Assembly (NCBI GenBank): GCA_048939245.1
Contig: JBHLPR010000003.1
Span: 14,266 to 78,265 of the forward strand
Source: Promethearchaeota archaeon
Lineage (GTDB): Archaea > Asgardarchaeota > Hermodarchaeia > Hermodarchaeales > Hermodarchaeaceae
Direction of reading: 5' to 3'
DNA: 64,000 bases
The notes below the pieces were generated by a model that searched no databases, had not been told where the DNA came from, and was given only the letters and a program-made list of their open reading frames with translations. Each line of letters opens with the position of its first letter. Within the stretch, counting starts at the first letter, position 1. The position numbers and the translations under genes are program-made. This document shows, piece after piece, positions 7,110 through 50,776 of the stretch.

Positions 7110-7499
7110 TCATTTCAGCATTCGCTTCAAACGCTTGGTCATCAAATCGATGATTAATGTAATTGCACCTAACGGAGCATTCCGATCGGCTATCAATGCC
7201 AACACATTGGCTTCGCTGATTCTTCGTACTAGCAAATGCCCTCGTCCACACCGTAGCATCAAATCATTATATTTCCCGATTTTAAGGCTGCTCGCTGTTT
7301 GTTCGGATAGCGCACCAAGTGAAGCTATTGCTGCAGCTAATTCTAATTTCTCTACTTCCCCTTTACCCATAAGCACAATGAGCGGTAATCCGTCAGCTGT
7401 CATGACCGCAGCACTATAAATAAAGGGTTCCCGGCCCACCATTTCCTCTAAATAATTCTCTACTGTCGACATAGCTGAGGCATCGGAAGGTGATTGCAT
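7110..7499 (-). CDS. Roadblock/LC7 (MglB-like) domain protein
   Basis: 129 aa. Matches the Roadblock profile (AAVMTADGLPLIV..., LAAAIASLGAL..., GHLLVRRISEANVLALIADRNAPLG). Confidence 0.7.
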   Translation of the reverse strand: MQSPSDASAMSTVENYLEEMVGREPFIYSAAVMTADGLPLIVLMGKGEVEKLELAAAIASLGALSEQTASSLKIGKYNDLMLRCGRGHLLVRRISEANVLALIADRNAPLGAITLIIDLMTKRLKRMLK

Positions 7500-8960: not shown

Positions 8961-9222
8961 ATTTTCTACCGTCCAGGAATCTCCGCCAACTCGAATGACA
9001 TTTATTTTACGCTCTTAAATATATACTTTGCGGCATAAATACGTACATTACTCGTTATGGGCGTTATATACACTTCATGTCACCTATTCACCAAATCCGG
9101 TTGTGTCCTGATTTGCTATGGCTTAGTGCTGATAAAAACTCATAAGAACAGGAAGGCAGAGTTAAACTAAACATCTTAGTGCACCATGATAGACTTAGAA
9201 ATACCCGCTGGCTGGGGTAGGC

Positions 9223-9594
9223 GTGTCGAAGAATCGAGGAAAAGATGCATATGACTTACTTATGTCCCTTCTTTCTCTAAGTGAGATTCAAAGGCGAATT
9301 CTCATTTCTCTCGCCCATATCTACCCACGTGCAGCCTCAGGTAAGCAGCTCATCACTTTGATTGGATATAGTGGAAAAGCGAAATCCTTGTATCGTGGTC
9401 CCCTTGAACGTCTCGAAAAAGAAGAGCTAATTCTTGTTGATCGATTGACTCCACGTCTTCACTCAATTCGAGTAAACCATCTGCATCCTCTAATATCGTA
9501 TCTACTCGAACTCATTGAAGCTCATGGAAAGAAAACGATGGAACTTTACACAAAAGCTCTCGAGGAGGGAACATCTGTTGACCGAGAAGAATGA
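9223..9594 (+). CDS. putative winged-helix regulator (MarR/TrmB-like)
   Basis: 123 aa: RRILISLAHIYPRAASGKQLITLIGYSGKAKSLYRGPLERLEKEELI resembles a wHTH. Confidence 0.4.
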   Translation: MSKNRGKDAYDLLMSLLSLSEIQRRILISLAHIYPRAASGKQLITLIGYSGKAKSLYRGPLERLEKEELILVDRLTPRLHSIRVNHLHPLISYLLELIEAHGKKTMELYTKALEEGTSVDREE

Positions 9595-10195
9595 GCAAGT
9601 GCTTACAAGCATGGTTAGGGAACAATACATCATGGAATGGGGATTATTAGGCGTTCTTTGGACAGTGAGCATTATCTGTTCCTATATTCTTGTAATTAAT
9701 CTGCTGCTTCTGCCTTCATTAGGTCCTCCTTGGACTCCCACCCCAGAGCAAACTTGGTGGCAGTGGTTACTTCTAGCTTTTCAACACCAGTATATTTGGC
9801 CTGCTGGGTTAGCAACAACCCTCGCTTTGGTTTTGACAATTAGTGTGACTATTTATTTCGCCTTTTGGATCCCGTCACGGGTTGATAAGACAATTCAAAT
9901 CGAGTTACACCGAATAGGACCAACAACCAAACTAAGACTTCACAGACAATATGTAACAAAAATCAATTCAAAGGGGCTTCTTGTTACTAGGTTGCTGGCA
10001 AAAACGACGAGTTCAGGAGAATATGGGCTAGTTGTGCTAAGGGCTTCATTTCCGAATGTGTCATATGATGAGATAGAATCTGTAGCACAACGGAATTTCT
10101 TAGCCTGGGATAAAAATTCAATCGCGACCGTTTCTTCTGTCGATGAACTTCACTTCAAAATTACTCAACTTGCCCGTGCATTCGCTGAGCTATGA
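9515..10195 (+). CDS. membrane protein (3-4 predicted TM helices); true start probably near 9611
   Basis: Hydrophobic stretches WGLLGVLWTVSIICSYILVINLLLL and LATTLALVLTISVTIYFAFWI. The annotated start overlaps the upstream gene by 80 bp in another frame. Confidence 0.4.
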   Translation: MKLMERKRWNFTQKLSRREHLLTEKNEQVLTSMVREQYIMEWGLLGVLWTVSIICSYILVINLLLLPSLGPPWTPTPEQTWWQWLLLAFQHQYIWPAGLATTLALVLTISVTIYFAFWIPSRVDKTIQIELHRIGPTTKLRLHRQYVTKINSKGLLVTRLLAKTTSSGEYGLVVLRASFPNVSYDEIESVAQRNFLAWDKNSIATVSSVDELHFKITQLARAFAEL

Positions 10196-17188: not shown

Positions 17189-20100
17189 TTAAGCAATCTC
17201 TATGTTCATAGTAATTGTATCTGGCAATCTGTTGGTTAAGTTCAGCTCATAGATTAGAATTCCTTTTGCTTCTCGATGTTCTGCAACAACAGGCAATCGA
17301 GGCAATTCAACCTGTGCTCCCGGAATTTGAATCATCACAGCTTCAGGGTCTTGTGAAAGTGCGTCGACTCCTAAAATTTGTAGTGTTACTGTTGCAGCCA
17401 AATCCTCAGTAGTGATTAACCAGAATCCAATAGACACATTGTTTTCACTAGGCTTTTGGAGTGTGAGCCAACTTTGAATTTTATCGCCTTTGTAGGTGCT
17501 GCATAAAATTGGGGTTATTTCGTACCAAATAAGATCAGTAGGTTTTGTTGATGGACGAAGATTAGAGAAAGTGCGCGTTTTCATCTGTATTTGTCCGTCA
17601 ATGGAGATTTCGGGTTCAATTTGGAGGCTGATTCGAAACTGTTCATCAGCTAGAGTAAAACTTGTTTCAGCGTCCTCGAGTCGAAAACCAGAATCGAGGA
17701 TAGACTCGTCACCCAGTTGGAAAGCCCATTGCCGTTCTAATTGTGTCGCTAACTGGGCTTGTTCTTTCGAACCGATTTGACTTGCCTCACGAAGTAGTTC
17801 GGTTAATTGTCGTCGAACCGAATCAAGCTTGTCTTTGCCTTGAGCTAGACTTGTAAATGTCAAAGGAACTTGGGTGTTCAATATCCTTGAAGCTTGTAAC
17901 CGAGTAGCGGCTTCAGTTACGTCGATACTTTCTAAGGCTTCGATTCCCTCTTGATAGACTAGATCCCATTCTTTGAAAATAAGAATTTGTGTGGATAGCG
18001 TCGGATTTGTTCTTAGGCGTGTCTGCATTAATTGGTTGTATTGAGATAATGCCGCTTCGATTGTGATGGGGTTCTCTTCCTTTGCTGCTGCTTTGAGTGC
18101 TTTTTCAATTTGGGTTGTTGCTCTTCGTAATAGGCGGTGTTGGGCACCTGCAGATGTTGACAGAGTTGCCAGTTTTGCTGTGGCGCTTCCTGCGGCACTT
18201 AAAGCCAGAATTTCATTGTGTGTATCACCTTGGGCTGCAGCAGCTTTCGCTAGTGTCTGAGCAAGGTTTTCGCTTTTTGTCAATAGGGTTTCCCATTGTG
18301 AATCTTCTGCTGGGTGTTCATCATGAACTAGGGCGTTGATATTTCGCAGTAATAGGAATGCAAAGGGATACGTTGTTTTCGTTATCTTGTCAACGGCAGG
18401 CATAAACGTGAGGGTCTGCTCCACAAACTCTTGTGCGTCTTTTTTCAATTTATATGCGTCTTGAACATCAGTTACCTTTGATATACGCTGGAGAAGAATC
18501 CAAATTAGAAGCGATCCAGCTTTCAAAGCCTTTGCTTGATGTCGTCCTTTTACCTGTGCCACCATTGCCGTGGTTGCATAATCTTCCAATTTATCCAGAT
18601 CCTTTGTGGGAAAGGATGCACTAATTTTTCCTGAGGAATCTGGCGTTACAGTTGAAATTAAGAGCTGCAAGGCTAATTGTGCACGTATTTTGGGGTCTTT
18701 GGTTTGAAAATAGAGGTGTTCGTTAAGTTGATTACTTCGTTCCATCAGCAGGTGTGCTGACTCACTTATGGTTGCAACTGGTCTCTGTGAGAGTTGTTGG
18801 GTTATCTTCGATACAACCTCAAGATCTTGGTCGTTGATTTTGGTCGATGGGGAAATCTCTGGAATCAATTGAGTTGCGTATTTCGCTGCCGTGCTTAGAA
18901 GGCTATCCTTCTCTGCGTCAGGGGCCGCTTCAGTAAGGCGGAGTATGGCTTTTATCAATTCACGGTGAATTGCCAGGGAAGCTTCAGGTTCCGTATTAAG
19001 TTGTTGCAATTGATTAAGTGCGATTTGTTGGAATTTCACATGTAATTTTGCCAACACATAACGAGCTTCAGAGGCTTCAATTTTTGGCATTAATCTGGCG
19101 AGAAGTCTGTCCAGCTGCTTTGACATGCGAAGAATGAGATTTTGGTCTATGGGACGATCCAATAAGGGTATTGTGCTGATGAGTGTTTTGAGTGTGCCCG
19201 TGGTCGCTTCTTCAAGGATTTCTGGTGAGTCTGAAGAAATCTCGCCAGTTAAGCGGAGAATATAGTCAAGCTGTTTGACAGCTCTGGCTATATCATCAAG
19301 TGCCCGATAATTGAATACCGCGGTGCGTGCAAATCGTAGACTTCGTAATAGATCATCTCCGAACGCTTTATCCGATTTTCCCTGTGCCATTTCAAACCAG
19401 AGTGTGCTTGCCCGTGTTGCCAATTTCGCGGTTGAGTAGGCATCTCGAAGTTCAATTGCTGCGTTCATTGCAGTCGTTAGATGCTTAAGCTGTGACTGAC
19501 GCAGTTTCTGGGTTGACATGGTTTGGTGTAGGCGATCTTTCAAATGCTGTTCGCTGATGTCCAAAACCTTCAGATCATCAATCGATTGAAGCGCTGTTAC
19601 GATGATCTTTCCTGTTTCTCTCCCTCTGTCCTCCATTATCTTATGAAGGGCTTTCCAATTTCTTGTGAGTTTACGTAATAGGGCAATTTGTTTTGTGGGG
19701 TCATCCTCTTGTGTGAATTCATTGATTGTGTCTTTGGCTTTGGCTGTCTGGTAGGCAAGAAGTGAGTTTCGCTGAAACTTTTCAGCAAATTCAATGATTT
19801 GCTCTAATTCCGCTTTCATTGTGGTTTCAGGAATAATGAGAAGGCGGTGTAATAGTATTTGTAAGACTGTTTCTATTGTTGAGGCATTCGTATCTTCTAG
19901 GGTTTCCAGAATCGTGGCTATTGCTGAAGCTTCAAGCGCAATTAACTCTTTTCGGAAATCTCCGTCTGGGACAATCCCTAAAAGCCAATGGCTTTTCCAT
20001 AGAAGTTCTACGGGTTCGACTTTGCGTTTAGCTGTGATATCTGCCAAAGTGCTTTCTAGGTGGTGTCGACCAAAATAGCGCGTTTCAAGGGCCTCATGAA

Positions 20101-20284
20101 TCGTAAGATCCGTATTCTTTGCTAACGTGACTGCATCTTGAAGTTTCTTTTCATAAAGAAAGATTTGGCTTAAATTATTGATTCCCCGCTTGTCAAGTTT
20201 CTTTTGAAGTTTTGTAGGAAGGCTTGATAAATCTGATAAAGAAATGGAAAGGTCAATGCCAACCATTTTATTCACCACTTTCAC
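17189..20284 (-). CDS. large (1031 aa) predominantly alpha-helical protein of unknown function
   Basis: Uninterrupted 3.1-kb ORF, no TM segments, mostly helical/coiled sequence with a beta-rich C-terminal 200 aa. No recognisable catalytic motif. Confidence 0.5.
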   Translation of the reverse strand: MKVVNKMVGIDLSISLSDLSSLPTKLQKKLDKRGINNLSQIFLYEKKLQDAVTLAKNTDLTIHEALETRYFGRHHLESTLADITAKRKVEPVELLWKSHWLLGIVPDGDFRKELIALEASAIATILETLEDTNASTIETVLQILLHRLLIIPETTMKAELEQIIEFAEKFQRNSLLAYQTAKAKDTINEFTQEDDPTKQIALLRKLTRNWKALHKIMEDRGRETGKIIVTALQSIDDLKVLDISEQHLKDRLHQTMSTQKLRQSQLKHLTTAMNAAIELRDAYSTAKLATRASTLWFEMAQGKSDKAFGDDLLRSLRFARTAVFNYRALDDIARAVKQLDYILRLTGEISSDSPEILEEATTGTLKTLISTIPLLDRPIDQNLILRMSKQLDRLLARLMPKIEASEARYVLAKLHVKFQQIALNQLQQLNTEPEASLAIHRELIKAILRLTEAAPDAEKDSLLSTAAKYATQLIPEISPSTKINDQDLEVVSKITQQLSQRPVATISESAHLLMERSNQLNEHLYFQTKDPKIRAQLALQLLISTVTPDSSGKISASFPTKDLDKLEDYATTAMVAQVKGRHQAKALKAGSLLIWILLQRISKVTDVQDAYKLKKDAQEFVEQTLTFMPAVDKITKTTYPFAFLLLRNINALVHDEHPAEDSQWETLLTKSENLAQTLAKAAAAQGDTHNEILALSAAGSATAKLATLSTSAGAQHRLLRRATTQIEKALKAAAKEENPITIEAALSQYNQLMQTRLRTNPTLSTQILIFKEWDLVYQEGIEALESIDVTEAATRLQASRILNTQVPLTFTSLAQGKDKLDSVRRQLTELLREASQIGSKEQAQLATQLERQWAFQLGDESILDSGFRLEDAETSFTLADEQFRISLQIEPEISIDGQIQMKTRTFSNLRPSTKPTDLIWYEITPILCSTYKGDKIQSWLTLQKPSENNVSIGFWLITTEDLAATVTLQILGVDALSQDPEAVMIQIPGAQVELPRLPVVAEHREAKGILIYELNLTNRLPDTITMNIEIA

Positions 20285-20306: not shown

Positions 20307-20406
20307 ATAAGAAATTTTGCAGAATGGCATTACTCGCCCTTCACTCTCAAAGATTCAATACGTTAGTTAAGCCCCGTTACAAGTTCCTCAACTGCCTCAT
20401 CTGGAA
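20307..20406 (-). pseudogene. orphan copy of the metG 3' end (about 100 bp, about 75% identical to 27381-27480)
   Basis: aagaaattttgcagaatggcattactcgcccttcactctcaaagattcaatacgttagttaag...caactgcctcatctgg aligns with the real metG terminus aagaaattttactgaagggcgttacttagcttttgctctcgcagattcaatacgttggttgag...caactgcctcatctga. Confidence 0.65.
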
Positions 20407-20467
20407 TCCTTGAAATCATTACTATAGGTTGGGGAAATTCTTATCCTAGGTAAACTGGATCCTTCTT

Positions 20468-20932
20468 TCACCTCTCCTCAGTTATTTTAGTAGAGGTGAG
20501 CTGCTCACTTTGATGAATACCTTCACCTACCCAATAATTGCCCTGTTTCACGATAGTTTTTCCTTCTCTGTGTTCCCAGTATAGTTGAGTCAAGAGGAGG
20601 GGCCAGGACCCAAGAACAAGGACACCCAAAATGAAAGTGACGAATCCGGCAATTAGGGTTGCTACTATCCCGAGTCCAACAGGGAAGTACAAATGGAGCC
20701 ACGATATTCCATACTGAATTAGGAAAGTCTGGATTAACACCAAAGGTATCAAGATTAACAAGTGCCACCATCGAATATGTCTGATTTTTTCACGGGAAGG
20801 AATCTCTGCAGGAAGCCTAGCAGACCAACCTAATTCATAGTGTACTTGAGGTATGCCACTCAGTAAGAAGCTAAGCGAGAGACTAATCAACCCTGGAACG
20901 CTGATTAAGAAAAACCTCCAAGGGGTCGTCAC
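20468..20932 (-). CDS. small membrane protein (4 TM helices)
   Basis: 154 aa hydrophobic ORF between metG-fragment copy A and the 21040-21295 repeat. Confidence 0.4.
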   Translation of the reverse strand: MTTPWRFFLISVPGLISLSLSFLLSGIPQVHYELGWSARLPAEIPSREKIRHIRWWHLLILIPLVLIQTFLIQYGISWLHLYFPVGLGIVATLIAGFVTFILGVLVLGSWPLLLTQLYWEHREGKTIVKQGNYWVGEGIHQSEQLTSTKITEER

Positions 20933-21039
20933 TGCAAGCCATATTAATAGAAAAGCAATTGGAGTCCAACCAAGAGTAATGGTTAGGCGTCGATTGCGAA
21001 GGACATTCCACCGTGAAATCGAAGCACTAACGGATATGG

Positions 21040-21295
21040 TCTATTCCCTCTATCTGGACTAGGTGATTCCAAGACCAAAAATATTACTAAATCAGAAGCT
21101 AACTTGATTCTTGTATAGCCATCTAGTGCATTTACCGAAGATGTAAGATCCGTTATCCATCGAAGTAGAATGGTGGTTTTTTATCATAGCGCTGCATAAT
21201 GAAAGGTTGTTTGAACAACAGGCTAAGAAATTTTGCGGAATGGCGTTTCTTGTCTTTTTCTCTCAATGATTCAATATTTTAGTAGGTTTGCTTTA
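21040..21295. repeat. copy 1 of a roughly 200-bp direct repeat (21040-21245) fused to a second orphan metG 3'-end fragment (about 21227-21295)
   Basis: ctattccctctatctggactaggtgattccaagaccaaaaatattac...gcataatgaaaggttgtttgaacaacaggctaagaaatttt matches 27180-27395. It is followed by gcggaatggcgtttcttgtctttttctctcaatgattcaatatttt, which resembles the metG terminus. Confidence 0.7.
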
Positions 21296-21739
21296 GCAAA
21301 AACGAAAAGAAGGGAAGAATGAAAAACGAGGAAGTTGATGATAATTCACTTTTGGAGGGAAATTCGGTGTATTGGAAACGTGTGCCTGTTTGGGTTCCAG
21401 GCGCGTTGATCACAATTATTGTATGGCTTGTTGTACTTTACATCATTCTCACTTTTTTTTCCAATTGCGCCCGAACAGCAACCCATACTTGTATTAGTCA
21501 CCGTAATGATATTCCTGATATGTTCGGGGTCAGTGCTCTATTACTGGCTTCAACGGCTTTTTGGGACCCGATACAATCCCGACATTTAGAGTAGGAGCTT
21601 TAGTAACCTTTTTGGTCTCGGATTCACCTAATCCAATTAGAGGGAAAAAACAAATTCTAGCAAAGAATCTCGGACGAACTATAGTGAACCTATCTACTTC
21701 CTTATCTTCATTGTATCACCACTACTCCTTGTCTTTCTT

Positions 21740-22081
21740 ATGCTGGCCACTTTGATAGCTAACGCCTTGTGGATCATTATCTATGCGATACCCTATGTTA
21801 TCGTAATGCCGCTTTGGTTTTACATCGATACCCGAATACGCCGTAAATTACTAGGAGACGGAGCAAAATACGCTGTTTTATTGGTTGTCCATGGCATATC
21901 CATTATTTTACTAACTTTCAATTGGATGCTGGCGACACCTGAACCTCTGCCGTTCTGGCCTCTTTTCGTGTGGGGGTTTTGGGTGGTTTTCATCTTATTC
22001 ATTAGTTCTGTCATTTGTGAGCGGTTCTTAAAACCCAAGTTTCGTTCATTGTATGAGCAATCAGAACCAGGTCATTTCTAG
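21740..22081 (+). CDS. small membrane protein, paralog (inverted orientation) of 26782-27231
   Basis: C-terminal CERFLKPKFRSLY versus CERFLKPKLESGG. The upstream short ORF 21561-21755 shares ...SDSPNPIRGKKQ... with the paralog N-terminus ...ESPSPIRGNRV..., suggesting a frameshifted or diverged duplicate. Confidence 0.4.
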   Translation: MLATLIANALWIIIYAIPYVIVMPLWFYIDTRIRRKLLGDGAKYAVLLVVHGISIILLTFNWMLATPEPLPFWPLFVWGFWVVFILFISSVICERFLKPKFRSLYEQSEPGHF

Positions 22082-22098
22082 TTTTTTTCCACCGTAGA

Positions 22099-22935
22099 TT
22101 AAGTTTTTCGCTTTAAGAGAATAACAATAACAATAACTACTATGCTAATGCCAATACTGATTGCTACTATCTTAAGAGTCTGGTCAGATAGAGCGCCCTC
22201 AATGCTATCACTAACAACAATATTATCAATCGAGGAATTCCCCTGAAAAGAAACAAAACTGAATGTTTCCGATGTGGTGACTCTATCATCCGTTATCTCG
22301 ATAACTAATTCTGAATTGAGATTGATTTGAAACTGGCCTGGTAAATCTCGTATGATTTCAAAATGAAATACCTCATTAGCTCTTGTGATGATAGGGTGTC
22401 TAGCTAATATGTAACGCTCCAATCCTTGGAATAACTCAAAGTAGATCTCACCATTAACAAATGAGTCTAAAATTAATGCATAACCATCCATATTAGGAAC
22501 CTGGGATACTCCAGATAAATTGTAATTGTTTTCTAAATCTGTATATACAAAATTAACAGAATCGAAGGAAACATTACTACTGGATACATGCCAATCAAAA
22601 CTCCAAGTACCATATGCCGTACTACTATTATGGATAGCTCTTCTTAGATGGGTCAGGTCTCCGTGGTATCCAACATTAGGCCAGTAGTAATAGACATCTT
22701 CAGCTGTCAGCGTTCCATTCTCAATAGTGAATCCATGATCAACTTCACAAAATACATCATCAACTAGTTCGTATCCCTGGAGAATCCAATCGTCCAAGGA
22801 ATCTATATTATCAACCTCAAAATCTTCACTCCAAAATTGTCCTGCAGATACTGTGATAGGAAAGAGAGTGGAAAGGACTAAGAATAATACAGTGGATAAA
22901 ACAAGTATTCGAAATGAGATAGATCTATGAACCAA
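22099..22935 (-). CDS. secreted, C-terminally membrane-anchored surface protein (paralog A)
   Basis: 278 aa. N-terminal signal/TM, C-terminal TM anchor IVAISIGISIVVIVIVILLKRKT. Shares blocks with 22975-23796 (WSEDF.V...LDDW.LQGYE..D..F..VDHGFTI.NG.LTAEDVY, AYGTWSFDW.VS, FVSFQGNSSIDNIVVSDS). Confidence 0.5.
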   Translation of the reverse strand: MVHRSISFRILVLSTVLFLVLSTLFPITVSAGQFWSEDFEVDNIDSLDDWILQGYELVDDVFCEVDHGFTIENGTLTAEDVYYYWPNVGYHGDLTHLRRAIHNSSTAYGTWSFDWHVSSSNVSFDSVNFVYTDLENNYNLSGVSQVPNMDGYALILDSFVNGEIYFELFQGLERYILARHPIITRANEVFHFEIIRDLPGQFQINLNSELVIEITDDRVTTSETFSFVSFQGNSSIDNIVVSDSIEGALSDQTLKIVAISIGISIVVIVIVILLKRKT

Positions 22936-22974
22936 AGTTCCACCACAATTTCTCTCTGTTCCTTTAATCTAATC

Positions 22975-23796
22975 TTATTTCTTCCATTTAAAAAAGATAA
23001 CAATAGCTACAACAATGACACCTATTCCAATCCCGATTACAATAAGTTCAATAGTTAGTCCAGATTGAGTAACATCAACACTATCACTAACGACTATATT
23101 GTCAATCGAGGAGTTCCCTTGAAATGACACAAAATTGAATTTCTCACAAGAGGTGACATCATTATCTATCACATTGAGTACTAGTTGTGTATCAAAATAC
23201 ACATTAAACTCTCCTTCCAAAGAGCGTGTTATATCTATATGATGTTGGCCAATTAAATCAGAAGGAAAATCATGTCTAACAAGGATAACGCCGTGTGTTA
23301 CAGCGAACTTCTCAATGTACATCTCATCATTCATAACTGTGTCCAAAATAAGAGTATATCCTGTCATTGCATATGATGTGAATTCTCCTGTTAGATTGTA
23401 TTCATTTCGCAAGTCAGTAAACATGAACTCCACTCCATCATAACCATTCTGACTTCCACTAACACGCCAATCAAAACTCCAAGTACCATATGCCACGGTA
23501 CTATTATGAATCGCTCTTCTCACTTGGGACATGTAGATTGACCATGGAACATACACGTCCTCTGCAGTCAACTCTCCATTCACAATGGTGAAACCATGAT
23601 CCACTTGGTAGAACGTAGAATCAATCATTTCATATCCTTGAAGGACCCAATCGTCCAACTCTTCAACAGGAGAAACCGCGAAGTCTTCACTCCACACAAT
23701 TGCAGCAGATACTTGCATTTGATTTAAAGGAATTGCGATTAAGATTGTAACTGTAATCACAGATATTATTCTAAGCAACTGGAATAGTGTAGACAT
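22975..23796 (-). CDS. secreted, C-terminally membrane-anchored surface protein (paralog B)
   Basis: 273 aa, same architecture and conserved blocks as 22099-22935. Tandem duplicates. Confidence 0.5.
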   Translation of the reverse strand: MSTLFQLLRIISVITVTILIAIPLNQMQVSAAIVWSEDFAVSPVEELDDWVLQGYEMIDSTFYQVDHGFTIVNGELTAEDVYVPWSIYMSQVRRAIHNSTVAYGTWSFDWRVSGSQNGYDGVEFMFTDLRNEYNLTGEFTSYAMTGYTLILDTVMNDEMYIEKFAVTHGVILVRHDFPSDLIGQHHIDITRSLEGEFNVYFDTQLVLNVIDNDVTSCEKFNFVSFQGNSSIDNIVVSDSVDVTQSGLTIELIVIGIGIGVIVVAIVIFFKWKK

Positions 23797-23949
23797 GAAT
23801 CCACCTCCCTCTATCTTCTATTTAAAAGGAACTTCAACCCTTCGCAATGCCTTAGTGAATAAATCTGGATCTTGTCTCACGAGAGACATGTTACGTTGCC
23901 TGTAATGATACGGCTTGAAGGTTCACTAGTAGGTTATTACGAGAAGATA

Positions 23950-23988
23950 GCATAATGAGAGGTTGTTTGAACAACAGGCTAAGAAATT
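23950..23988. repeat. third partial copy of the gcataatga-aggttgtttgaacaacaggctaagaaatt element
   Basis: gcataatgagaggttgtttgaacaacaggctaagaaatt matches 21196-21234 and 27346-27389. No metG fragment follows here. Confidence 0.6.
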
Positions 23989-24290
23989 ATACAAATACAA
24001 CTCGTAAACGAAAAGATTGGTACGCCTAGATAGACGCTATGGAAGTAATCGAAACCAATAAGGATGGTAGAATCGTCGATGAACTAATTTATGGACTGCA
24101 GAGCAATGATGAGGACACTAAATCATGTATTCCAACCTTACTAGCAAGTCAAGGCGATCAGTGACCAATCCAAATCATTGGCCATCTGCTTGAGAACTTC
24201 CTGCTTCCTTAAAGGGAAGGTGCTCAAATAAATACCAAGTTGAATGGAAAAGCGTAAATCCGAACACGCTGGTTCAGATTTAGGCTCAAT

Positions 24291-26615
24291 TTGACTAGTC
24301 AGAAGCAGGATTCATTACTTGCTAGGCTGCTCAATTATATCTTAGTGAATTTTTATTCCGAACGTGAGGAATTTTTGAGCAATGTGATAAGTATGATTCT
24401 GCCTGTGAGTCGTAGGCGTGTATGGACTACAGCACTACTACTTTTTTTTCTATTCCCAGTGCCAGCTTATGTAAGACATCAATGGACATACAATTCTTCT
24501 TCCGGTCTAAGTAATAATCTCACAGTACCAATAATACCTAATCTTCTTAATTATGAAATCAACATAGTCTTCCTAGGCATCAATGAAACAAGAATAGATC
24601 AAGATTCGTTGTTGGACCAGCTACCAAAATGGTATGCCCCGGTCGATGGCATGTGGTGGCGCCAGGAGTTTGACATGAACTTCACTCTAGCATACAGCCT
24701 TAGCTTTACCGAACAAGTTCAAATAGATGATTATCGAATGTTCTTGCACCAGAACTCTGTAGAGGATAGGTCACCGTTCTTCATACAGCCTGAACATCCA
24801 ATGGCTAAATACATTCACTCGGATATGGTTGAGTCATACTTAGCTGAGAACGTGATCGACAAATCGTCAGCAACTCTTGTAATCATTGATACCTACTCCT
24901 TTGATCCGACTGGACATGTTCCCTATTACTACAATGCGACCTATAACGAACTGGATGCAGAACTTGAGGGATGGGTCATCAACCCACTTCCTTGGGCTTC
25001 AACTTACCAGATAGCTGGAGGTGGTGAGAACTCAAGACTACTCTGGCTAGATCTTTCAGCAGGTCCGACTGTCTATCATTCGACCTTCGATTCGAGTACG
25101 GGAGGTGTAGAAGAGATCTTGCCCATCTGGACCTACGAAGAACTAGTAAATCCTGTGGAACAACTAACAGAAGATCTTGTAAAATACATTACTCAAGCAG
25201 TCGAATGCCGGTTCTCGCCATCAACTTACCTTCGAGCCACTATTGGGGTGCCTCTAATCCATTCACCCACCACTGAAATTGCAATGGAAGTTCTTCTTGT
25301 AGATCTGGCCAATACTAATTTCAGATTTGAGGAAAGACTCAAGCTCGACTATATAGCATCCGAGTACGAAAGAGTGAATCCTTTCGTGGAATGGACATAT
25401 AGTGTAACGGATTGGGATTGGGAATCAGATCTGAGTTTTCTCTCAGTCCTTGAAGCTTCGCAAGATGATCAAGCGATGACCTATGACCCGAGGATTCTAG
25501 TGGAGTTTTTTGACCTAAAATACATGAGCCTCTTCAATTCGAGTTCGCATAATAGATTAGTATTACCAATCTTCTTGTTGACACTTCCTGTAGGTTGGAA
25601 CTTCAATCCTGAGTGGGGTGGAATGGCTCAATGTATCGATGGCGAGTTTGCCTACATTTATGGGAAGCAAAGTCTGGACTTAGTTGATCCTAGCTACATC
25701 GATCAGGCGATCATCCCGCTTGAAGGTTTGCAGATTGAGAGTGGAGACTCCTTCAATATTTCGGGATACTTGGGGGATTTTATTGGTTCTATCGATTTTT
25801 CGATGAATGTTCTTAACAGCAGGATTAGTGTCTATTTTCTAGATGAATATGGTTACAATCAATATGAGCAGGCTTTACCATTTGTGGATCTTTTAAATCA
25901 CTCATTTGAGAATGTCTCTGCCGGGTCGGGCATGGTGGTTTCGAACTTCGAATGCACGATTTATGGAAGATATTATCTGGTGATCGAGAATAACGAAAAC
26001 GAGACAGCAACCGTTGATATCACATTGAATATAGAGGTAGACCATTGCTATGGGTACACTTGGAAAATCATGCATGAGATTGGACATGCTTTGGGGTTAA
26101 ACCATCCCCATGATGCATACTCTTGGGGTAACTATAACCACCCGGCTGCAAATGTAGGGGTTTACCTAAATTGGCTTTGGGATATGTCGTATTCTCAGAT
26201 GAATTACGCGAACCAGGTTCCAACGATTTCCTTGATGGATATTGACACGCTTCAAAGAGAGTCCATAACAAGATATTGGGCAGATGCTGTGAACATCTGG
26301 AATGATATTGTTAATAATTCTACAATCAAATATGGTGGAGTTTCATCCATCATAGAAATGCATCTAGTAAACGCTTCCCAGCATTTCAATCAGAGCGTGG
26401 ACTATTACTCAAATACTAACAGTCTAGACAATTACCAAAATTCATTACATGAGGTTTTTAGCATGTGGAAGGAGCTTAGGTTGGCCTTAGCTGAACTAGC
26501 CTTCTATTCCCTGTTAGAGATTCAAAACATTCTGTTTATTGTTTTTGTGGTGGCTGTCATCATCTTAATTGTTGTGATCTATGTAGTAATGCGAAGAAGG
26601 AGAATGAGGGAGTAG
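24291..26615 (+). CDS. large membrane-anchored extracellular protein with a metzincin zinc-protease motif
   Basis: 774 aa. Probable signal peptide at the internal MILPVSRRRVWTTALLLFFLFPVPAYV. HEIGHALGLNHPHD (HExxHxxGxxH) near residue 590. C-terminal TM anchor ILFIVFVVAVIILIVVIYVV followed by MRRRRMRE. Confidence 0.6.
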   Translation: MTSQKQDSLLARLLNYILVNFYSEREEFLSNVISMILPVSRRRVWTTALLLFFLFPVPAYVRHQWTYNSSSGLSNNLTVPIIPNLLNYEINIVFLGINETRIDQDSLLDQLPKWYAPVDGMWWRQEFDMNFTLAYSLSFTEQVQIDDYRMFLHQNSVEDRSPFFIQPEHPMAKYIHSDMVESYLAENVIDKSSATLVIIDTYSFDPTGHVPYYYNATYNELDAELEGWVINPLPWASTYQIAGGGENSRLLWLDLSAGPTVYHSTFDSSTGGVEEILPIWTYEELVNPVEQLTEDLVKYITQAVECRFSPSTYLRATIGVPLIHSPTTEIAMEVLLVDLANTNFRFEERLKLDYIASEYERVNPFVEWTYSVTDWDWESDLSFLSVLEASQDDQAMTYDPRILVEFFDLKYMSLFNSSSHNRLVLPIFLLTLPVGWNFNPEWGGMAQCIDGEFAYIYGKQSLDLVDPSYIDQAIIPLEGLQIESGDSFNISGYLGDFIGSIDFSMNVLNSRISVYFLDEYGYNQYEQALPFVDLLNHSFENVSAGSGMVVSNFECTIYGRYYLVIENNENETATVDITLNIEVDHCYGYTWKIMHEIGHALGLNHPHDAYSWGNYNHPAANVGVYLNWLWDMSYSQMNYANQVPTISLMDIDTLQRESITRYWADAVNIWNDIVNNSTIKYGGVSSIIEMHLVNASQHFNQSVDYYSNTNSLDNYQNSLHEVFSMWKELRLALAELAFYSLLEIQNILFIVFVVAVIILIVVIYVVMRRRRMRE

Positions 26616-26781
26616 TTTCTACGTGTTGAAGATGCAAATTTTGGGTGTAGAAGGAAGTCTTTGAGGAGTTGTGCGTCATTCATCGCACGTTGGAACATAC
26701 TCACTGATTGGTTAAAGTTTATCGTCCTGTCGACTTTTCTACGGTTTATTTCAGATAAGAAACACAACTGCGACTTTGCTC

Positions 26782-27231
26782 CTATCCACCTGATTCGAGT
26801 TTTGGTTTTAAGAATCGCTCACAAAGCATGGAAGTCAAGGTTCCAAGGAACATGGCTGTGAATACAAATGAGAAACTAGCTAGGAAAAAATAGGGCGTCC
26901 AAAATGGACCAAACGACGTCATTAAGAACACCGTAATGAAACTGAATATTAAAGCCACCACAAGTTTCACTCCTCCTCTAACGAGCCCGGGTTTTATACG
27001 AGCATCAACGTAACACCAGATTTGCTTTACGATAACCCATGGTAGGGCAAATGCAATGGCAAACAATAAATTAGATAAGAATGCAAATACAAGAATTCCA
27101 CCGAAAATCAGTGGTGAGACGACAAAGCTAATGAAAAATGGGTTCACTGAAGTCTCTCCGCGACTCATTTTCAGACATACTCTATTCCCTCTAATTGGAC
27201 TAGGTGATTCCAAGACCAAAAATATTACCAA
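26782..27231 (-). CDS. small membrane protein (paralog of 21740-22081); true start probably the ATG near 27165
   Basis: Hydrophobic 4-TM protein. The annotated TTG start lies inside the 27180-27395 direct repeat. In-frame ATG (MSRGETSVNPFF...) sits about 66 bp downstream. Confidence 0.4.
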   Translation of the reverse strand: MVIFLVLESPSPIRGNRVCLKMSRGETSVNPFFISFVVSPLIFGGILVFAFLSNLLFAIAFALPWVIVKQIWCYVDARIKPGLVRGGVKLVVALIFSFITVFLMTSFGPFWTPYFFLASFSFVFTAMFLGTLTSMLCERFLKPKLESGG

Positions 27232-27395
27232 ATGAAAGTCAACACGATTCTTCTATAACCATTTGGGCTTCAAACCAGCGCATTTACAGAAGATGTAAGA
27301 TCCATTAGCCTTCGAAGCAAAATCGTGGATTTTTTTGGTCATAGTATTGCATAATGAGGTATGGTTTAAACAACAGGCTAAGAAATTTTACTGAA
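27180..27395. repeat. copy 2 of the roughly 200-bp direct repeat, abutting the stop codon of the real metG
   Basis: About 80% identical to 21040-21245 over roughly 205 bp. Confidence 0.7.
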
Positions 27396-27400
27396 GGGCG

Positions 27401-29125
27401 TTACTTAGCTTTTGCTCTCGCAGATTCAATACGTTGGTTGAGTCCAGTTGCTAATTTTTCAACTGCCTCATCTGATATCTTCGCAAACAGCACTTTAGGC
27501 TTAGATAATTCAGTGCCAGGACTAAGTGCTTCTAAACAGCTATCCACCTTCACATCATGCACACTTCCGGATTGGCTTAATTGTTTCCAAATTTTTTCTG
27601 CGGTGGCTGGTATTGCTGGTTCAATTAGTATGGCAATCGCTTTCAGCAGTTGTAAGCATTGATACAAATCGTTTTGACAGCGATCCGCATCCTCTTTGAT
27701 GGTTTTCCATGGTTCGTTTTGTTGAAAGAAAGTGTTTCCGAATGAGGCAAGGTGCATAGCAGCGTCAACAGCTTCTTTGAACTTAAAATCTTGAACAGCT
27801 TCATCAATCTCCTCTATTGTCTTTTCAATTTGCTCAGTAATTAGAGAGGAGATTGCACCTTCAGGGATTTTTTTTAAATTCCTATGAATAAACAGGAGTA
27901 CGCGGTATGCATAGTTTCCTAAAATTCCAACAAGTTCATTGTTCAATTTGGATTGGAATTCATTCCAAACGAAATCTAAATCTCTTGTATGGCCTGTATA
28001 GGAGAGGATGTAATAGCGCACAGCATCGAGATTAATTCCCTGCTTAATGAAATCTTCTTCAATATCAATTACAAAACCGCGGCTCTTTGAAAGGCCGTGG
28101 CCTTCAACTTTAACCATGCCACTGGCCACAATTGCATATGCTGTGTTATAGTTAACACCTTTTAGAATGGCAGGCCAGAAGACAGCATGATGATAGACGA
28201 TGTCTGCACCGATGAAGTTAATGATTTTTCCATCGCGAATCCAATAGTCCTTCCAATCAGCTCCGGTTTGTCGTGCCCACTCTTCTGTAAAGGATATGTA
28301 ACCTGCATAATTTTCAGCCCATACGTAGAGGACCAGATCCTCGTCACCTGGATATGGAATTCCCCATTTCAAATCTCGTGAAATACCCCAATCCTTTAGT
28401 CCTTGCCGAATCCATCCCAGGGCGTAATTCCGCGCCAAGGCTGTTCCTTTTAATTGTTCATTAAATTTGATGAGAAAATCAGTAAACATTGGTAATTTAA
28501 AGAAGTGGTGTCGGGTTTTTCGCTTAATTGCCGGTGATCCGCAGGTGACACATCGGGGATTGATCAATTGATCAGCATCGAGATAGCGTTGGCAGCCTTG
28601 ATCGCATTCATCACCACGCGCTAGAGCTCCACAATAAGGACAGGTTCCAATAAGAAAGCGGTCTGCAAGAAAGGTCTGGCAATTCTTACAGTAGGGTAAT
28701 GCTACCTCCCGGGCTTCAACATATCCGTTCTTCTCAAGAGTGCGGATTATAGTTTGTACGCGTTTGTAATGGTAAGGCGCTTCTGTTGTCCCGTACAAAT
28801 CAACGCCAATGTCCATTTTTTCAAAGATGCTTTTAAAATGTTCATGATATTTGTCTACTAGTTCTTTCGGAGTTATTCCTGCTTGTTCAGCAGCCAGTTC
28901 GATTGGGGCACCATGGGTGTCGGACCCGCATACAAATCTCACATCGTAGCCAAATCGTTTTAGGTACCTTACGTAGGCATCACCAGGAATATAGGTACGC
29001 AAGTGACCAATATGGGCCGTTCCATTCGAATAGGGAAGCCCACACGTTACTAAGATTTTATCAGTCTTGGTTAGGGACATATGGAATCCCTCCTTAGCAT
29101 TTTGGTGAGAGCATTCTTTGACCAA
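27401..29125 (-). CDS. metG: methionyl-tRNA synthetase
   Basis: 574 aa. Class I HIGH motif (AHIGHLRTYIPGDAYVRY), zinc knuckle CPYCG...C..C, KMSKS-type GLSKSRG, anticodon-binding helical C-domain. Confidence 0.9.
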   Translation of the reverse strand: MVKECSHQNAKEGFHMSLTKTDKILVTCGLPYSNGTAHIGHLRTYIPGDAYVRYLKRFGYDVRFVCGSDTHGAPIELAAEQAGITPKELVDKYHEHFKSIFEKMDIGVDLYGTTEAPYHYKRVQTIIRTLEKNGYVEAREVALPYCKNCQTFLADRFLIGTCPYCGALARGDECDQGCQRYLDADQLINPRCVTCGSPAIKRKTRHHFFKLPMFTDFLIKFNEQLKGTALARNYALGWIRQGLKDWGISRDLKWGIPYPGDEDLVLYVWAENYAGYISFTEEWARQTGADWKDYWIRDGKIINFIGADIVYHHAVFWPAILKGVNYNTAYAIVASGMVKVEGHGLSKSRGFVIDIEEDFIKQGINLDAVRYYILSYTGHTRDLDFVWNEFQSKLNNELVGILGNYAYRVLLFIHRNLKKIPEGAISSLITEQIEKTIEEIDEAVQDFKFKEAVDAAMHLASFGNTFFQQNEPWKTIKEDADRCQNDLYQCLQLLKAIAILIEPAIPATAEKIWKQLSQSGSVHDVKVDSCLEALSPGTELSKPKVLFAKISDEAVEKLATGLNQRIESARAKAK

Positions 29126-29883: not shown

Positions 29884-30471
29884 GTGCGGTCAATCTCACA
29901 AAATCCTGAAAATTCCAACTCCCCGAATGTGGTAGCTGCAGAGAAAGCAGGCTTCGTTGTGAAAGTAATTATAGTGGGGGATTGGGGTGTGGGAAAAACG
30001 AGTCTTATTCGAAGATTTGCTGAAAACAAGTTCGACCATGACTACAAACCCAGCATCGGCGTTAACATCGTCACCAAAGTTGTCGATGTAGCTGGAAGAA
30101 AATTAAAACTGCAACTATTCGATACAGGTGGACAAGAACGCTTTCAATCCCTTCGACAAAGGTATTACAAAGGGGCAAACGCAGTCATATTCGTCTTTGA
30201 CATAACAAGGCCTTCATCAGCATCAGCGATTGAATCCAAATGGTTAGATGAGGTGAAATCAATTCTCGGTGAAGATTTTGTACGGGTGGTTTTAGCGAAT
30301 AAAACGGATTTAGAATCTGGCCGAGCCGTATCTGAATATGCCGCTCAACAAGCCACTGATCGAATTCAAGGCAAGTATTATGAAACCAGTGCCTTAGATG
30401 GCCGGAATGTCACCGAGGCATTTTCTGAATTAGCTGCCGAATTAATGGAAAAACTCTTTCCGGAGGTATAA
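29884..30471 (+). CDS. Ras-superfamily small GTPase (Rab/Ras-like)
   Basis: G1 GDWGVGKTSL, switch II/G3 DTGGQERF, G4 NKTDL, G5 ETSAL. About 170-aa G-domain. N-terminal about 25 aa uncertain (true start may be internal). Confidence 0.8.
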   Translation: MRSISQNPENSNSPNVVAAEKAGFVVKVIIVGDWGVGKTSLIRRFAENKFDHDYKPSIGVNIVTKVVDVAGRKLKLQLFDTGGQERFQSLRQRYYKGANAVIFVFDITRPSSASAIESKWLDEVKSILGEDFVRVVLANKTDLESGRAVSEYAAQQATDRIQGKYYETSALDGRNVTEAFSELAAELMEKLFPEV

Positions 30472-49400: not shown

Positions 49401-50774
49401 TCATTGGGTTGCGGCGGTCATGGGCACATCTTTGACACGTACGAAAGGAATGATTGTTGGTGTTTCAACTTCCCACCATTGAACCTGTCGGGATGATTTG
49501 CCTAACGCTTCAATATTGGCATATATTCGTAGCAGATTATCTGAGATACGGAGCTTTTGAACCGGTTGGCTAATTTCACCCTTTTCGATTAGGAACATTC
49601 CGTCTCGTGGAATCGTTGAGAACGTGCCTTCGAGTTGATTTGTATATCGTAAGTACCAATTTGACGTCACATAAATCGTCGGTCTCTGAGGTTCTAATAG
49701 CTCTTCAAAGGAAGCATCACCTTCAGAAAAGACAACATTGGTTGGCGCTGGAACAAGCAGTTTTGAGCCCATTCCAAAGCTAACAAGTTGGCAATTACCG
49801 GTGCTCTTTGTCTGTAACATCTGGGCTGTTGATGCATTATGAACAACCCCTTGAAGCGTACCCTCCACAAAAATTGGCGATTTTTGCGTGGGAGTACCTT
49901 CAAAATCGAAAGGTGCACTCGCCAATCCATTAGGCAATCGTCCGTCATCCCATATGCTCACTGAATCGGGAGCTAATTTCTCTCCGATTTTGTCTTTCAA
50001 TGGGCTCATTCCGAGCATCATCAATATTGGATTAGCTGACTCTGCAAGGCTGCCTAACACTGATGCTGCCACCGTCGGATGCAAGATTAAGTCGTAAGTA
50101 CCAGCCTTTCCCTGCTTACCTCCCTGGGCAAGTTTCGCAATCTCGCCTGATTCCTGACCTGCTTGTGAAATCTGTTTTTCAATCTTATCCAAAGTCCGCC
50201 CTACTACAACTCCTTGCCCGGAACTTTCGGCATCGACAAAACTTCGCAACGTAATTCGATAAGACGATGTAAGATAATTTCCGCTAAAGCCTTGTGACGT
50301 CTCTAATAAATAGCGTTTTTCATCGAAGAAAAACGACCCAGCTATTCGCTTTGCACCAGCCTTTTGTGCGCGATGTACTGCCGCGGTCATTATATCAGGA
50401 GCTTTCGAAGGGAAATCACGAATTCCTTTATCATATAGTTGATCTACCTTCGTTGGCGGTTGAATTTCCTCCTGTAACCCTGAAAACATCGGCGTTGGCT
50501 GCAGACCTCGAACAAACTTAGTCAAACGCTTCAATTCAGCATCAAGTGTTTTCTTTTTCGGATTATAGATCTCTGTGGTTCCTATTCGCCCATCAATCGC
50601 AACAAACGCTTCTAGCACGGTATACTTCCACTGTTTGAAAATATCAATCTCAGAATTACTAACTCGAATCTGATGCTCCAATACTTCTCGGCCTTGAACG
50701 ACGGCTTCGCCTTCAGCTGAAGCAAACTTTAACGCCTGATTAACAATCTCTTGTAAATTCTCCTGCTTAGTCAT
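49401..50774 (-). CDS. pmbA: TldE/PmbA-family metallopeptidase partner
   Basis: PmbA-family fold. Listed ORF extends to 50903, but the probable start MTKQENLQ at about 50774 gives a 4-bp overlap with tldD. Confidence 0.7.
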   Translation of the reverse strand: MTKQENLQEIVNQALKFASAEGEAVVQGREVLEHQIRVSNSEIDIFKQWKYTVLEAFVAIDGRIGTTEIYNPKKKTLDAELKRLTKFVRGLQPTPMFSGLQEEIQPPTKVDQLYDKGIRDFPSKAPDIMTAAVHRAQKAGAKRIAGSFFFDEKRYLLETSQGFSGNYLTSSYRITLRSFVDAESSGQGVVVGRTLDKIEKQISQAGQESGEIAKLAQGGKQGKAGTYDLILHPTVAASVLGSLAESANPILMMLGMSPLKDKIGEKLAPDSVSIWDDGRLPNGLASAPFDFEGTPTQKSPIFVEGTLQGVVHNASTAQMLQTKSTGNCQLVSFGMGSKLLVPAPTNVVFSEGDASFEELLEPQRPTIYVTSNWYLRYTNQLEGTFSTIPRDGMFLIEKGEISQPVQKLRISDNLLRIYANIEALGKSSRQVQWWEVETPTIIPFVRVKDVPMTAATQ

Positions 50775-50776
50775 CT

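Follow-up and report, generated by a model that had tools for sequence, protein, structure and literature searches.

The stretch analysed here (the window, 64,000 nt of contig JBHLPR010000003.1) belongs to a Thorarchaeota (Asgard) metagenome-assembled genome (MAG) and contains, beside the methionyl-tRNA synthetase gene metG, an array of three inserted gene blocks. The array measures ~7.07 kb from core to core (20308-27389), the core being a short sequence repeated at the block boundaries, and is located between the metG stop codon and a conserved gene for a 1031-aa protein, g1031. Both of these genes lie on the minus strand, metG at 27401-29080 and g1031 at 17189-20284, and they form the proximal and the distal anchor of the site, respectively. 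In the direction of metG, i.e. along the minus strand, the blocks are ordered E1 (27378-23991), E2 (23979-21235) and E3 (21223-20319). The island proteins match the NCBI entries ACFFCF_01200, _01210 and _01215 ('Promethearchaeota archaeon'). An initial annotation of this DNA had described a repeat-bracketed segment. Repeats do bracket it, but its true boundaries are the two outer cores given above, and the small membrane-protein gene on its right-hand side is part of the first block.

Block E1 comprises a leader, the gene of a small membrane protein (SMP) designated SMP3 and, on the opposite strand, the gene of a zinc-motif protein. The leader (27181-27389, minus strand) consists of a 5' untranslated region (5'UTR)-like element, an intergenic segment, a conserved arm (27349-27387) and core copy 1 (27379-27389). 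SMP3 is the first gene of the block (26782-27168, minus strand; annotated start at 27168, open reading frame (ORF) to 27231) and encodes a 128-aa protein with four transmembrane (TM) segments, whereas the plus-strand gene (24393-26615) encodes a membrane-anchored 740-aa protein with a DUF7906 domain and a metzincin motif. Block E2 contains the genes of a 278-aa type-I membrane protein with a predicted ConA-like lectin/glucanase beta-jelly-roll ectodomain (22099-22935, minus strand) and of its 273-aa paralog (22975-23796, minus strand), a degraded inverted SMP copy, SMP2 (21599-22081, plus strand, with a 5'UTR element at 21599-21651 and an ORF at 21740-22081), and a 91-aa ORF with one TM segment (21319-21594, plus strand), which the sister assembly lists as a gene and for which no homolog could be established. 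Block E3 consists of a leader and the gene for a 154-aa polytopic membrane protein with a weak DUF1673 match (20468-20932, minus strand). The E3 leader (21039-21236, minus strand) is a duplicate of the region upstream of SMP3, with an arm (21194-21232), an intergenic segment and a 5'UTR-like element, and it is 78% identical to the E1 leader (27181-27431) over ~250 nt.

All four block boundaries carry the 11-nt core AWAATTTCTTA. Exactly four copies of it exist in the window, all on the minus strand, at 20308, 21224, 23980 and 27379, with 0.77 copies of a 10-nt version expected there by chance. Three of the four cores are followed by a near-invariant arm of ~39 nt, GCCTGTTGTTCAAACAACCTCTCATTATGC..., of which three copies are present against none expected by chance. 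Inside the arm there is a palindrome, GTTGTTCAAACAAC, of the form GTTGTT-CA-AACAAC. In each block, the arm precedes the first gene by 150-260 nt and has the same orientation as that gene.

A real or decayed 3' end of metG precedes three of the four cores, the last ~110 nt of metG being the template of the two decayed copies. Core 1 is preceded by the real metG 3' end (27379-27511). Core 3 (21224-21234) is preceded by remnant B, a ~60-nt decayed metG 3' end (21224-21283, minus strand). Remnant A, a 133-nt pseudogenised copy of the last ~37 metG codons (20308-20440, minus strand), ends in core 4 (20308-20318) and abuts the start region of g1031. It contains in-frame stops and is 70-75% identical to 27379-27511; in the relative L014 its position is occupied by the genuine metG 3' end. 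No metG copy is recognisable upstream of core 2 (23980-23990), which together with its arm (23947-23992, minus strand) forms the boundary between E1 and E2; the sequence there contains only a short stretch that is similar to the distal end of the cassette of L002, another relative. The region of core 2 and its arm is identical in 44 of 44 nt to that of L022/L024, whose backbone is only 74-76% identical to that of the window.

The impression that the segment is AT-richer than its surroundings was correct. The GC content of the array is 39.9%, whereas windows of equal size elsewhere in the 64 kb have a minimum of 41.8% and a mean of 44.0%. The low value is due to the paralog block (38.0%), the two paralog genes themselves having 36-37%. 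An independent assembly, GCA_016550425.1, shares the same 20.8 kb including the island with 99.9% identity and in the same orientation, and hence the array is not an assembly artefact. This second assembly also holds two versions of the metG locus that are only about 75% identical, one of the L002 type with SMP and a gene designated g105 (L004) and one of the window type with the full array (L030), so that the bin mixes two Thorarchaeota lineages. The window contains no tRNA or tmRNA genes, and the array is therefore not tRNA-targeted. The Aloposons (Wu et al. 2022, PMC8813620), which carry giant genes and target tRNAs, were considered as well and proved to be unrelated to the array.

The flanks of the array are colinear with several Thorarchaeota contigs (g1031 in L002, L012, L014, L020 and L026), and the content between metG and g1031 differs from contig to contig. 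In L014 (MAG H2M.135) metG directly abuts g1031, the site is empty and there is one core. L002-L004 (GCA_048939215.1 and others) carry SMP and g105 between two cores. L012 (YT1_028) has a PHO4 transporter and an Acyl_transf_3 gene with one core. In L020 and L019 (JGI metagenome; three cores) the cargo is an ABC-2-like block plus an E3 homolog and a HAD gene plus a Na/H exchanger, respectively; the L020 array comprises three cores and two blocks, one of which (9140-9994) is 85% identical to the whole of block E3. The metagenomic L024 carries HTH_20, an ABC ATPase and an ABC-2 permease, with an incomplete core count, and L026 (SMTZ1) carries an arrestin/Spo0M-like gene with two or more cores. 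Counting the window with its three blocks and four cores, four of the five complete arrays have one core more than they have blocks, and only L012 departs from this rule. When the junctions were compared at ten loci, empty and filled sites parted at the identical nucleotide after the core in every lineage. The cargo of the relatives consists mostly of membrane proteins and is enriched in envelope and transport functions. The arm is also found away from metG: a block of SMP and g104 with the arm and a 206-nt metG-like remnant occurs at another locus (L005-L007), where SMP3 has orthologs just as it has at the same position in L002-L004, and in L025 the arm marks a membrane-protein gene in yet another context.

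The most direct evidence of movement comes from L014 and L002, which share the same strain-level backbone (0 mismatches over 9,092 nt). They differ by the presence or absence of a 962-nt block of SMP and g105, bounded by a 12-nt direct repeat, and their mismatches are confined to the neighbourhood of the site, 37 in 580 nt on the g1031 side and 22 in 700 nt on the metG side. The divergent sequence (L014 positions 689-1267 and 1-700 compared with L002) forms a sharply bounded tract of 3-6% divergence, which extends over metG and the cassette site and through the first ~570 nt of g1031. The 962-nt block travels within a tract imported by homologous recombination, which carried either the filled or the empty allele and extends into the genes on both sides. 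The tract is a clean example of such import in Thorarchaeota. In L020, the distal metG copy matches the metG-proximal one at 100% identity over the 93 nt that can be compared, and this array is a recent event.

The cargo is much younger than the backbone. At third codon positions, the zinc-motif gene of the window is 75.8% identical to its H2M.135 homolog, whereas eight backbone genes are 39-47% identical between the same two genomes. In comparison with L020, the 154-aa gene reaches 73.9% and the backbone genes 38-42%. For SMP3 the values are 67.7-75.6%; between the window and L002 they are 67.7% for SMP3 and 46.6% for metG. The synonymous sites of the backbone are thus saturated and those of the cargo are not, which means that the cargo moved between lineages long after the lineages had split. 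For the cargo genes tested, this comparison of sequences indicates horizontal exchange among Thorarchaeota. The zinc-motif gene is 86%, 90% and 76% identical at codon positions 1, 2 and 3, and such numerous first- and second-position changes would fit the pattern of fast-evolving surface proteins. The earlier suggestion that the segment is variable, acquired envelope-protein DNA thus holds, as the segment is also absent from the syntenic site in relatives.

Two segments of the cargo have counterparts at other chromosomal loci. The segment 22025-23869 (minus strand) contains the paralog pair together with the upstream region belonging to it, and in addition the final 16 codons and the stop codon of a PF1765-like gene. 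Over these positions only, it is 94.5% identical in nucleotide sequence to L008 (GCA_016839365.1; 9927-11772), where the PF1765-like gene precedes the paralog pair. As the segment retains the 3' end of the gene that comes first in L008, it was copied from a chromosomal locus of the L008 type. The second segment (24216-26722, plus strand) contains the zinc-motif gene with ~175 nt upstream and 107 nt downstream. It is 83.3% identical to L001 (6668-9177) only, the match being limited to the gene and its short flanks, and L001 belongs to the same MAG (H2M.135) as the empty metG site. This gene, too, was probably copied from an ordinary chromosomal locus. No core is present near the gene at the source loci of either the paralogs or the zinc-motif protein.

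In the initial annotation the largest island protein was a 774-aa membrane-anchored giant with a zinc motif. The protein is present, with 740 rather than 774 residues: the ORF extends to a TTG at 24291 (774 aa), but the public annotation and all homologs start at the ATG at 24393 (MILPVSRRRVW...). The N-terminus of the 740-aa protein has RRR followed by a 15-residue hydrophobic stretch, and its C-terminal TM segment (residues 701-738; Kyte-Doolittle peak 3.69) is followed by RRRRMRE. The zinc motif HEIGHALGLNHPHD is of the HExxHxxGxxH type (HEIGHALGLNH) and is under strict conservation, M-HExGHAxGLxHPH being invariant in 27 homologs, including H561, E562, G564, H565 and H571. There are two candidate Met-turns, DMSY with M598 in 19 of the 27 homologs and SxMD with S613 in all 27 and M615 in 22.

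The assignment of this protein to a known peptidase family is less straightforward. The Pfam M66 profile gives 21.3 bits against a cut-off of 20.6, and it covers profile positions 192-248 only (56 of 306), in the region of the zinc motif. The NCBI label 'M66 family' rests on these 56 positions; there is no match to the full-length M66 (StcE) profile, and the support from M66 is correspondingly weak. The NCBIfam serralysin (M10B) profile gives 17.6 bits against a cut-off of 500. The motif is almost the serralysin string HEIGHALGL(N/S)HP, and serralysins in the Protein Data Bank (PDB) match over 15 residues only. DUF7906 is matched in the N-terminal half by all 27 close homologs, whereas metzincin families match at the motif only. 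An exhaustive profile search placed 306 clusters (at 50% identity) in the family, and no curated peptidase domain scored above threshold in the distant members scanned. Like the metzincins of families M66 (StcE), M10B (serralysins) and M12 (astacins), the 740-aa protein has HExxHxxGxxH with an invariant Gly and third His. Unlike them, it matches the profiles at the motif level only, has a DUF7906 domain and a beta-sandwich before the active-site helix, and is anchored in the membrane by its C-terminus. The sequence comparisons thus point to a probable membrane-tethered metzincin-type endopeptidase outside M66 and M10B. The beta-sandwich, at residues ~437-549 of the model and directly before the active-site helix, is GOLD/CBM-like and matches the p24 GOLD, ColH collagen-binding and SEC14L GOLD domains with E about 1e-4.

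PIGS is an essential subunit of the eukaryotic glycosylphosphatidylinositol (GPI) transamidase, a known pseudo-metzincin whose function is unclear. The best structural match of the model of the 740-aa protein (pLDDT 79) is to this subunit (7wld_S, E 1.8e-6, 752 aligned columns), with TM-scores of only 0.34-0.45 and a root-mean-square deviation of 13 Å. PIGS entries occupy Foldseek ranks 1, 2 and 4 (E 1.8e-6 to 8.6e-5; TM-scores 0.30-0.45). According to Xu et al. 2022 (PMC9098846), PIGS has one TM helix at each end, and its residues 222-398 fold like the metzincin AmzA without the zinc site. The topology predicted for the 740-aa protein, an N-terminal hydrophobic helix, a large extracytoplasmic domain and a C-terminal TM helix, is compatible with this. 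The 740-aa protein differs from PIGS/Gpi17 in its intact zinc site and in the lack of any sequence or profile similarity. The Pfam PIG-S profile matched none of the 27 members at E up to 1, a profile of the N-terminal domain found nothing among the PDB sequences, and a sequence link to human PIGS was rejected, as hhalign gave it a probability of 0.1. The resemblance seen in the model may therefore be regarded as an unconfirmed lead. A more far-reaching version, in which the 740-aa protein and the DUF7906 proteins related to it (about 300 clusters) would be catalytically intact archaeal relatives of PIGS/Gpi17 and a eukaryote-specific GPI-anchoring component would derive from a membrane-tethered Asgard surface protease, is a tentative idea that we find doubtful. 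A 2026 study gives the transamidase complex as a whole an Asgard ancestry, and its main text names no subunits (PMC12872458). If the resemblance were real, an Asgard protease that is still mobile cargo in Thorarchaeota would be the ancestor of a GPI-transamidase subunit. Searches of the literature yielded nothing specific on DUF7906, archaeal PIG-S or Thorarchaeota islands.

The two tandem anchored paralogs that had been noted at the outset are confirmed. The 278-aa and 273-aa proteins are 49% identical (E 2e-90), and each has a hydrophobic helix at its N-terminus and, at its C-terminus, a TM segment with basic residues (K/R) after it. A jelly-roll or lectin fold had also been guessed for them, and the guess was borne out by the AlphaFold2 model and the fold search. 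In the model (pLDDT 80.7), a ConA-like beta-jelly-roll has an N-terminal helix on one side and a C-terminal TM helix on the other. The best Foldseek matches in the PDB are carbohydrate-binding module CBM66, GH16 lichenases, calreticulin and the L-type lectins Emp47/VIP36 (E 6e-8 to 1e-6), at a sequence identity of 9-16%; among the 486 matches at E up to 1e-3, the top 50 all belong to the ConA-like superfamily. One member of the paralog family matches Laminin_G_3. The paralogs share the jelly-roll fold of this superfamily and differ in having a C-terminal membrane helix and in lacking the GH16 catalytic motif ExDxxE, which is absent from both. The likeliest role of the ectodomain would be to bind a ligand or glycan without enzymatic activity. 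Members of the family occur in Thorarchaeota and Kariarchaeaceae only. In one Kariarchaeaceae homolog (P0042), the lectin-fold ectodomain and TM helix are fused to a cytoplasmic winged helix (HTH_34, E 1.4e-13), which suggests that the ectodomain can act as the sensor of a membrane-tethered transcription factor. N-glycosylation sequons are enriched in the cargo ectodomains, with 1.1-1.9 per 100 aa against 0.2-0.7 in the cytoplasmic neighbours.

Every product of the array is a predicted envelope protein, and inverted repeats of 95-125 nt surround the central genes. One could thus imagine, as the initial annotation did, a co-functional and possibly phase-variable surface module, in which a protease works with substrate or adhesin partners and the inverted SMP genes allow the segment to flip. 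The distribution of the genes speaks against the first part of this idea. The protease family is found alone in three unrelated neighbourhoods, the paralog pair is alone in L008 and has a single-copy counterpart in L009, and the SMP gene has a different partner elsewhere, g104/g105. The three families co-occur in no other genome examined, and being scattered over unrelated contexts they do not form a conserved protease-partner module. Their co-location is specific to this genome. The second part fares no better. The inverted small membrane-protein genes do exist and do share CERFLKPK (SMP2 and SMP3 are 36% identical, E 2e-19), but the inverted SMP arms are only 74-75% identical over 95-125 nt, one of the end genes is degraded, no recombinase or invertase gene was found among the scanned ORFs of the 64 kb and both assemblies show the same orientation. 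A module of this kind is very unlikely. The segment is variable, acquired and surface-related, but neither a functional module nor a switch that can be inverted.

On the whole, the locus is best explained as an insertion array at a metG/g1031 hot spot, whose surface cargo acts independently and is exchanged horizontally, and we regard this account as reasonably probable. According to it, the blocks would first enter at the core by site-specific recombination, carried out by a recombinase that is encoded elsewhere and acts in trans. The arm would be the putative binding site of this recombinase, and each new entry would push the previous metG 3' end distally. The extracellular products would be a Zn-dependent endopeptidase tethered by its C-terminal helix and two carbohydrate- or ligand-binding ConA-like ectodomains, which would act independently of each other in varying the cell surface. 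The step of site-specific recombination at the core by a trans-acting enzyme, taken alone, falls just short of being probable. We nevertheless favour it over homologous recombination because the junctions are exact to the nucleotide, because a 12-nt repeat surrounds the clean 962-nt indel and because the arm is conserved in 44 of 44 nt between genomes of 74-76% identity and occurs at non-metG loci as well. Little is known of gene exchange or surface decoration in Asgard archaea, and the metG locus bears on both. It presents a compact exchange system: the hot spot is fixed, its boundary site is short and conserved, near-identical strains carry empty and filled alleles, and the cargo is demonstrably younger than the host genomes. 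This cargo (protease, lectin-fold proteins, transporters) comprises the kinds of envelope genes that are expected to respond to viruses, partners and substrates. If a recombinase does act on the core and arm, the site would be a gene-capture platform distinct from integrons.

A number of observations weigh against this account. A Pfam search of the island ORFs and of 40 further non-overlapping window ORFs of 120 aa or more found no recombinase, integrase, transposase or invertase. No recombinase is present among the genes listed for the other arrays, and no virus or plasmid contigs carrying the site were found. The core could be no more than a piece of the metG terminator, and the palindrome-bearing arm could serve as the operator site of a regulator; metG always has an AsnC-type gene beside it. 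The length of the metG remnants varies from 0 to 206 nt, and L012 has cargo with one core only. The interior of E2, in which the inverted truncated SMP2 is fused to captured DNA, needs illegitimate recombination whether or not a site-specific enzyme is assumed. The only directly observed transfer, that between L014 and L002, proceeded via homologous recombination in the flanks and not via the core. As to the products, protease activity and ligand binding are predictions, and the confidence of the model is low around the zinc site (residues 572-597).

Several of these points are shared by an explanation that dispenses with a dedicated recombinase. Here circularised fragments with a copy of the metG 3' end would be incorporated by Campbell-type single-crossover homologous recombination, and the array would grow further through unequal crossing-over between the repeats and through illegitimate recombination; double crossovers in metG and g1031 would spread the alleles. 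In this case the core would be the metG terminator and the arm the leader or operator of the SMP cassette, which underwent three duplications and was then overwritten by captured genes. The metG 3'-end direct repeats, 93-206 nt long and perfect in L020, agree with this, as do the whole ~250-nt leader that E1 and E3 have in common, the SMP remnant inside E2, the position and orientation of the arm relative to each block's first gene, the recombination tract spanning the L014/L002 polymorphism and the failure to find a recombinase in the scanned ORFs. However, recombination alone does not account well for the fact that, in all lineages, empty and filled sites diverge at one and the same nucleotide behind the core. 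Furthermore, the 12-nt repeat that bounds the L002 cassette is too short for efficient homologous recombination, the arm is perfectly preserved between genomes with a far more divergent backbone, and a block located away from metG (L005-L007, L025) bears this arm, too. We consider this explanation possible but on balance unlikely.

The duplicated 3' end of a target gene flanking AT-rich foreign DNA could also be taken as the trace of a decayed virus, plasmid or integrative mobilisable element that targeted the metG 3' end. Such a trace would resemble the bacterial islands at the 3' end of trmE (SGI1) or at dusA. The array has in common with these islands (PMC2297512, PMC8409611) the insertion at the end of a housekeeping gene, direct repeats with the end of the target gene, an empty site in relatives, stacking and accessory cargo. 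It differs from them in that no unit contains integrase or mobilisation genes, the units are only 0.9-3.4 kb long, chromosomal genes have been copied into at least two of its three blocks and the host is an Asgard archaeon. Replication, structural and transfer genes are likewise lacking, and the PHROG profiles gave no matches. Viral contigs were scanned for the site, for the metG remnant and for the lectin and protease families, and none of these four scans found a relative. Moreover, the paralog segment comes from a chromosomal locus and the only match of the protease segment is chromosomal, too, which makes a decayed element highly improbable.

The tandem blocks with a repeated site between them are also reminiscent of an integron-type cassette array without its integrase (a cluster of attC sites lacking integron integrases, CALIN), and such arrays are reportedly enriched in Asgard archaea, integrons/CALINs being described from some 8% of the Asgard MAGs (Ghaly et al. 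2022, PMC9668308). Like the arrays of that report, the metG array has stacked blocks at a fixed chromosomal position, and it resembles a CALIN in having no linked integrase. The sites are not attC, however. Read from the sequences, they lack the R''/R' pattern RYYYAAC...GTTRRRY, i.e. the consensus ends, and they form no hairpin, their single strands folding no better than shuffled sequence (z +1.3 to -1.1). The blocks are multi-gene and use both strands, their boundaries carry relics of the neighbouring gene, at least one of them, that with the paralog pair, has its own upstream region, and no IntI gene was found beside the array in the ORFs scanned. Of the explanations considered, this is the one we find hardest to credit.

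In the pangenomes of marine bacteria, replacement and additive flexible genomic islands are exchanged by homologous recombination in conserved flanks. The metG array is similar in being a hot spot between conserved genes with lineage-specific cargo of the envelope and transport type and with a recombination tract in its flanks. It is different in having a conserved core and arm at the block boundaries and a serially duplicated end of the flanking gene. Overall, the array resembles tandem integrative islands and integron arrays and fits neither.

The smaller cargo genes show varying degrees of decay. SMP2 has lost its ancestral start (ATG to GAA) and its first TM segment, and beyond CERFLKPK its C-terminus reads into the DNA that came with the paralog pair, the fusion being located at about 22025-22038. 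In the 154-aa gene of E3, the ancestral ATG (L020 9688) reads ATA in the window (20933-20945, minus strand), and the only start left is a GTG four codons downstream. We considered this gene as a third SMP paralog and rejected the idea, as it has no similarity to the SMPs and only the leader in common with them. Similarly, the resemblance of the 91-aa ORF to a diverged g104/g105 is noise (E 0.18), and no g105 remnants were found next to the protease gene.

Both metagenome contigs L019 (6,354 nt) and L020 (13,118 nt) end inside the repeated metG-end/core sequence. Perfect repeats of ~100 nt therefore break short-read assemblies at the hot spot, and the arrays are probably under-assembled in MAGs.

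The distal anchor g1031 has no Pfam, NCBIfam or PHROG match and evolves much faster than its neighbours, with 57-70% aa identity against 72-90%. Its start codon is 24 nt from the last core, so that its promoter must lie inside the metG-end remnant, and this could be a reason why the remnant has been retained. Further away from the array, the flanks hold eukaryotic-signature genes typical of Asgard archaea, namely a Roadblock/LC7 gene (7110-7499, minus strand) and a gene for an Arf/Ras-family small GTPase (29884-30471, plus strand). Finally, two adjacent overlapping genes at 49401-52213 (minus strand) encode PmbA/TldD-family metallopeptidases of 500 and 478 aa, and this pair is followed by an M29 aminopeptidase gene at 52306-53379.

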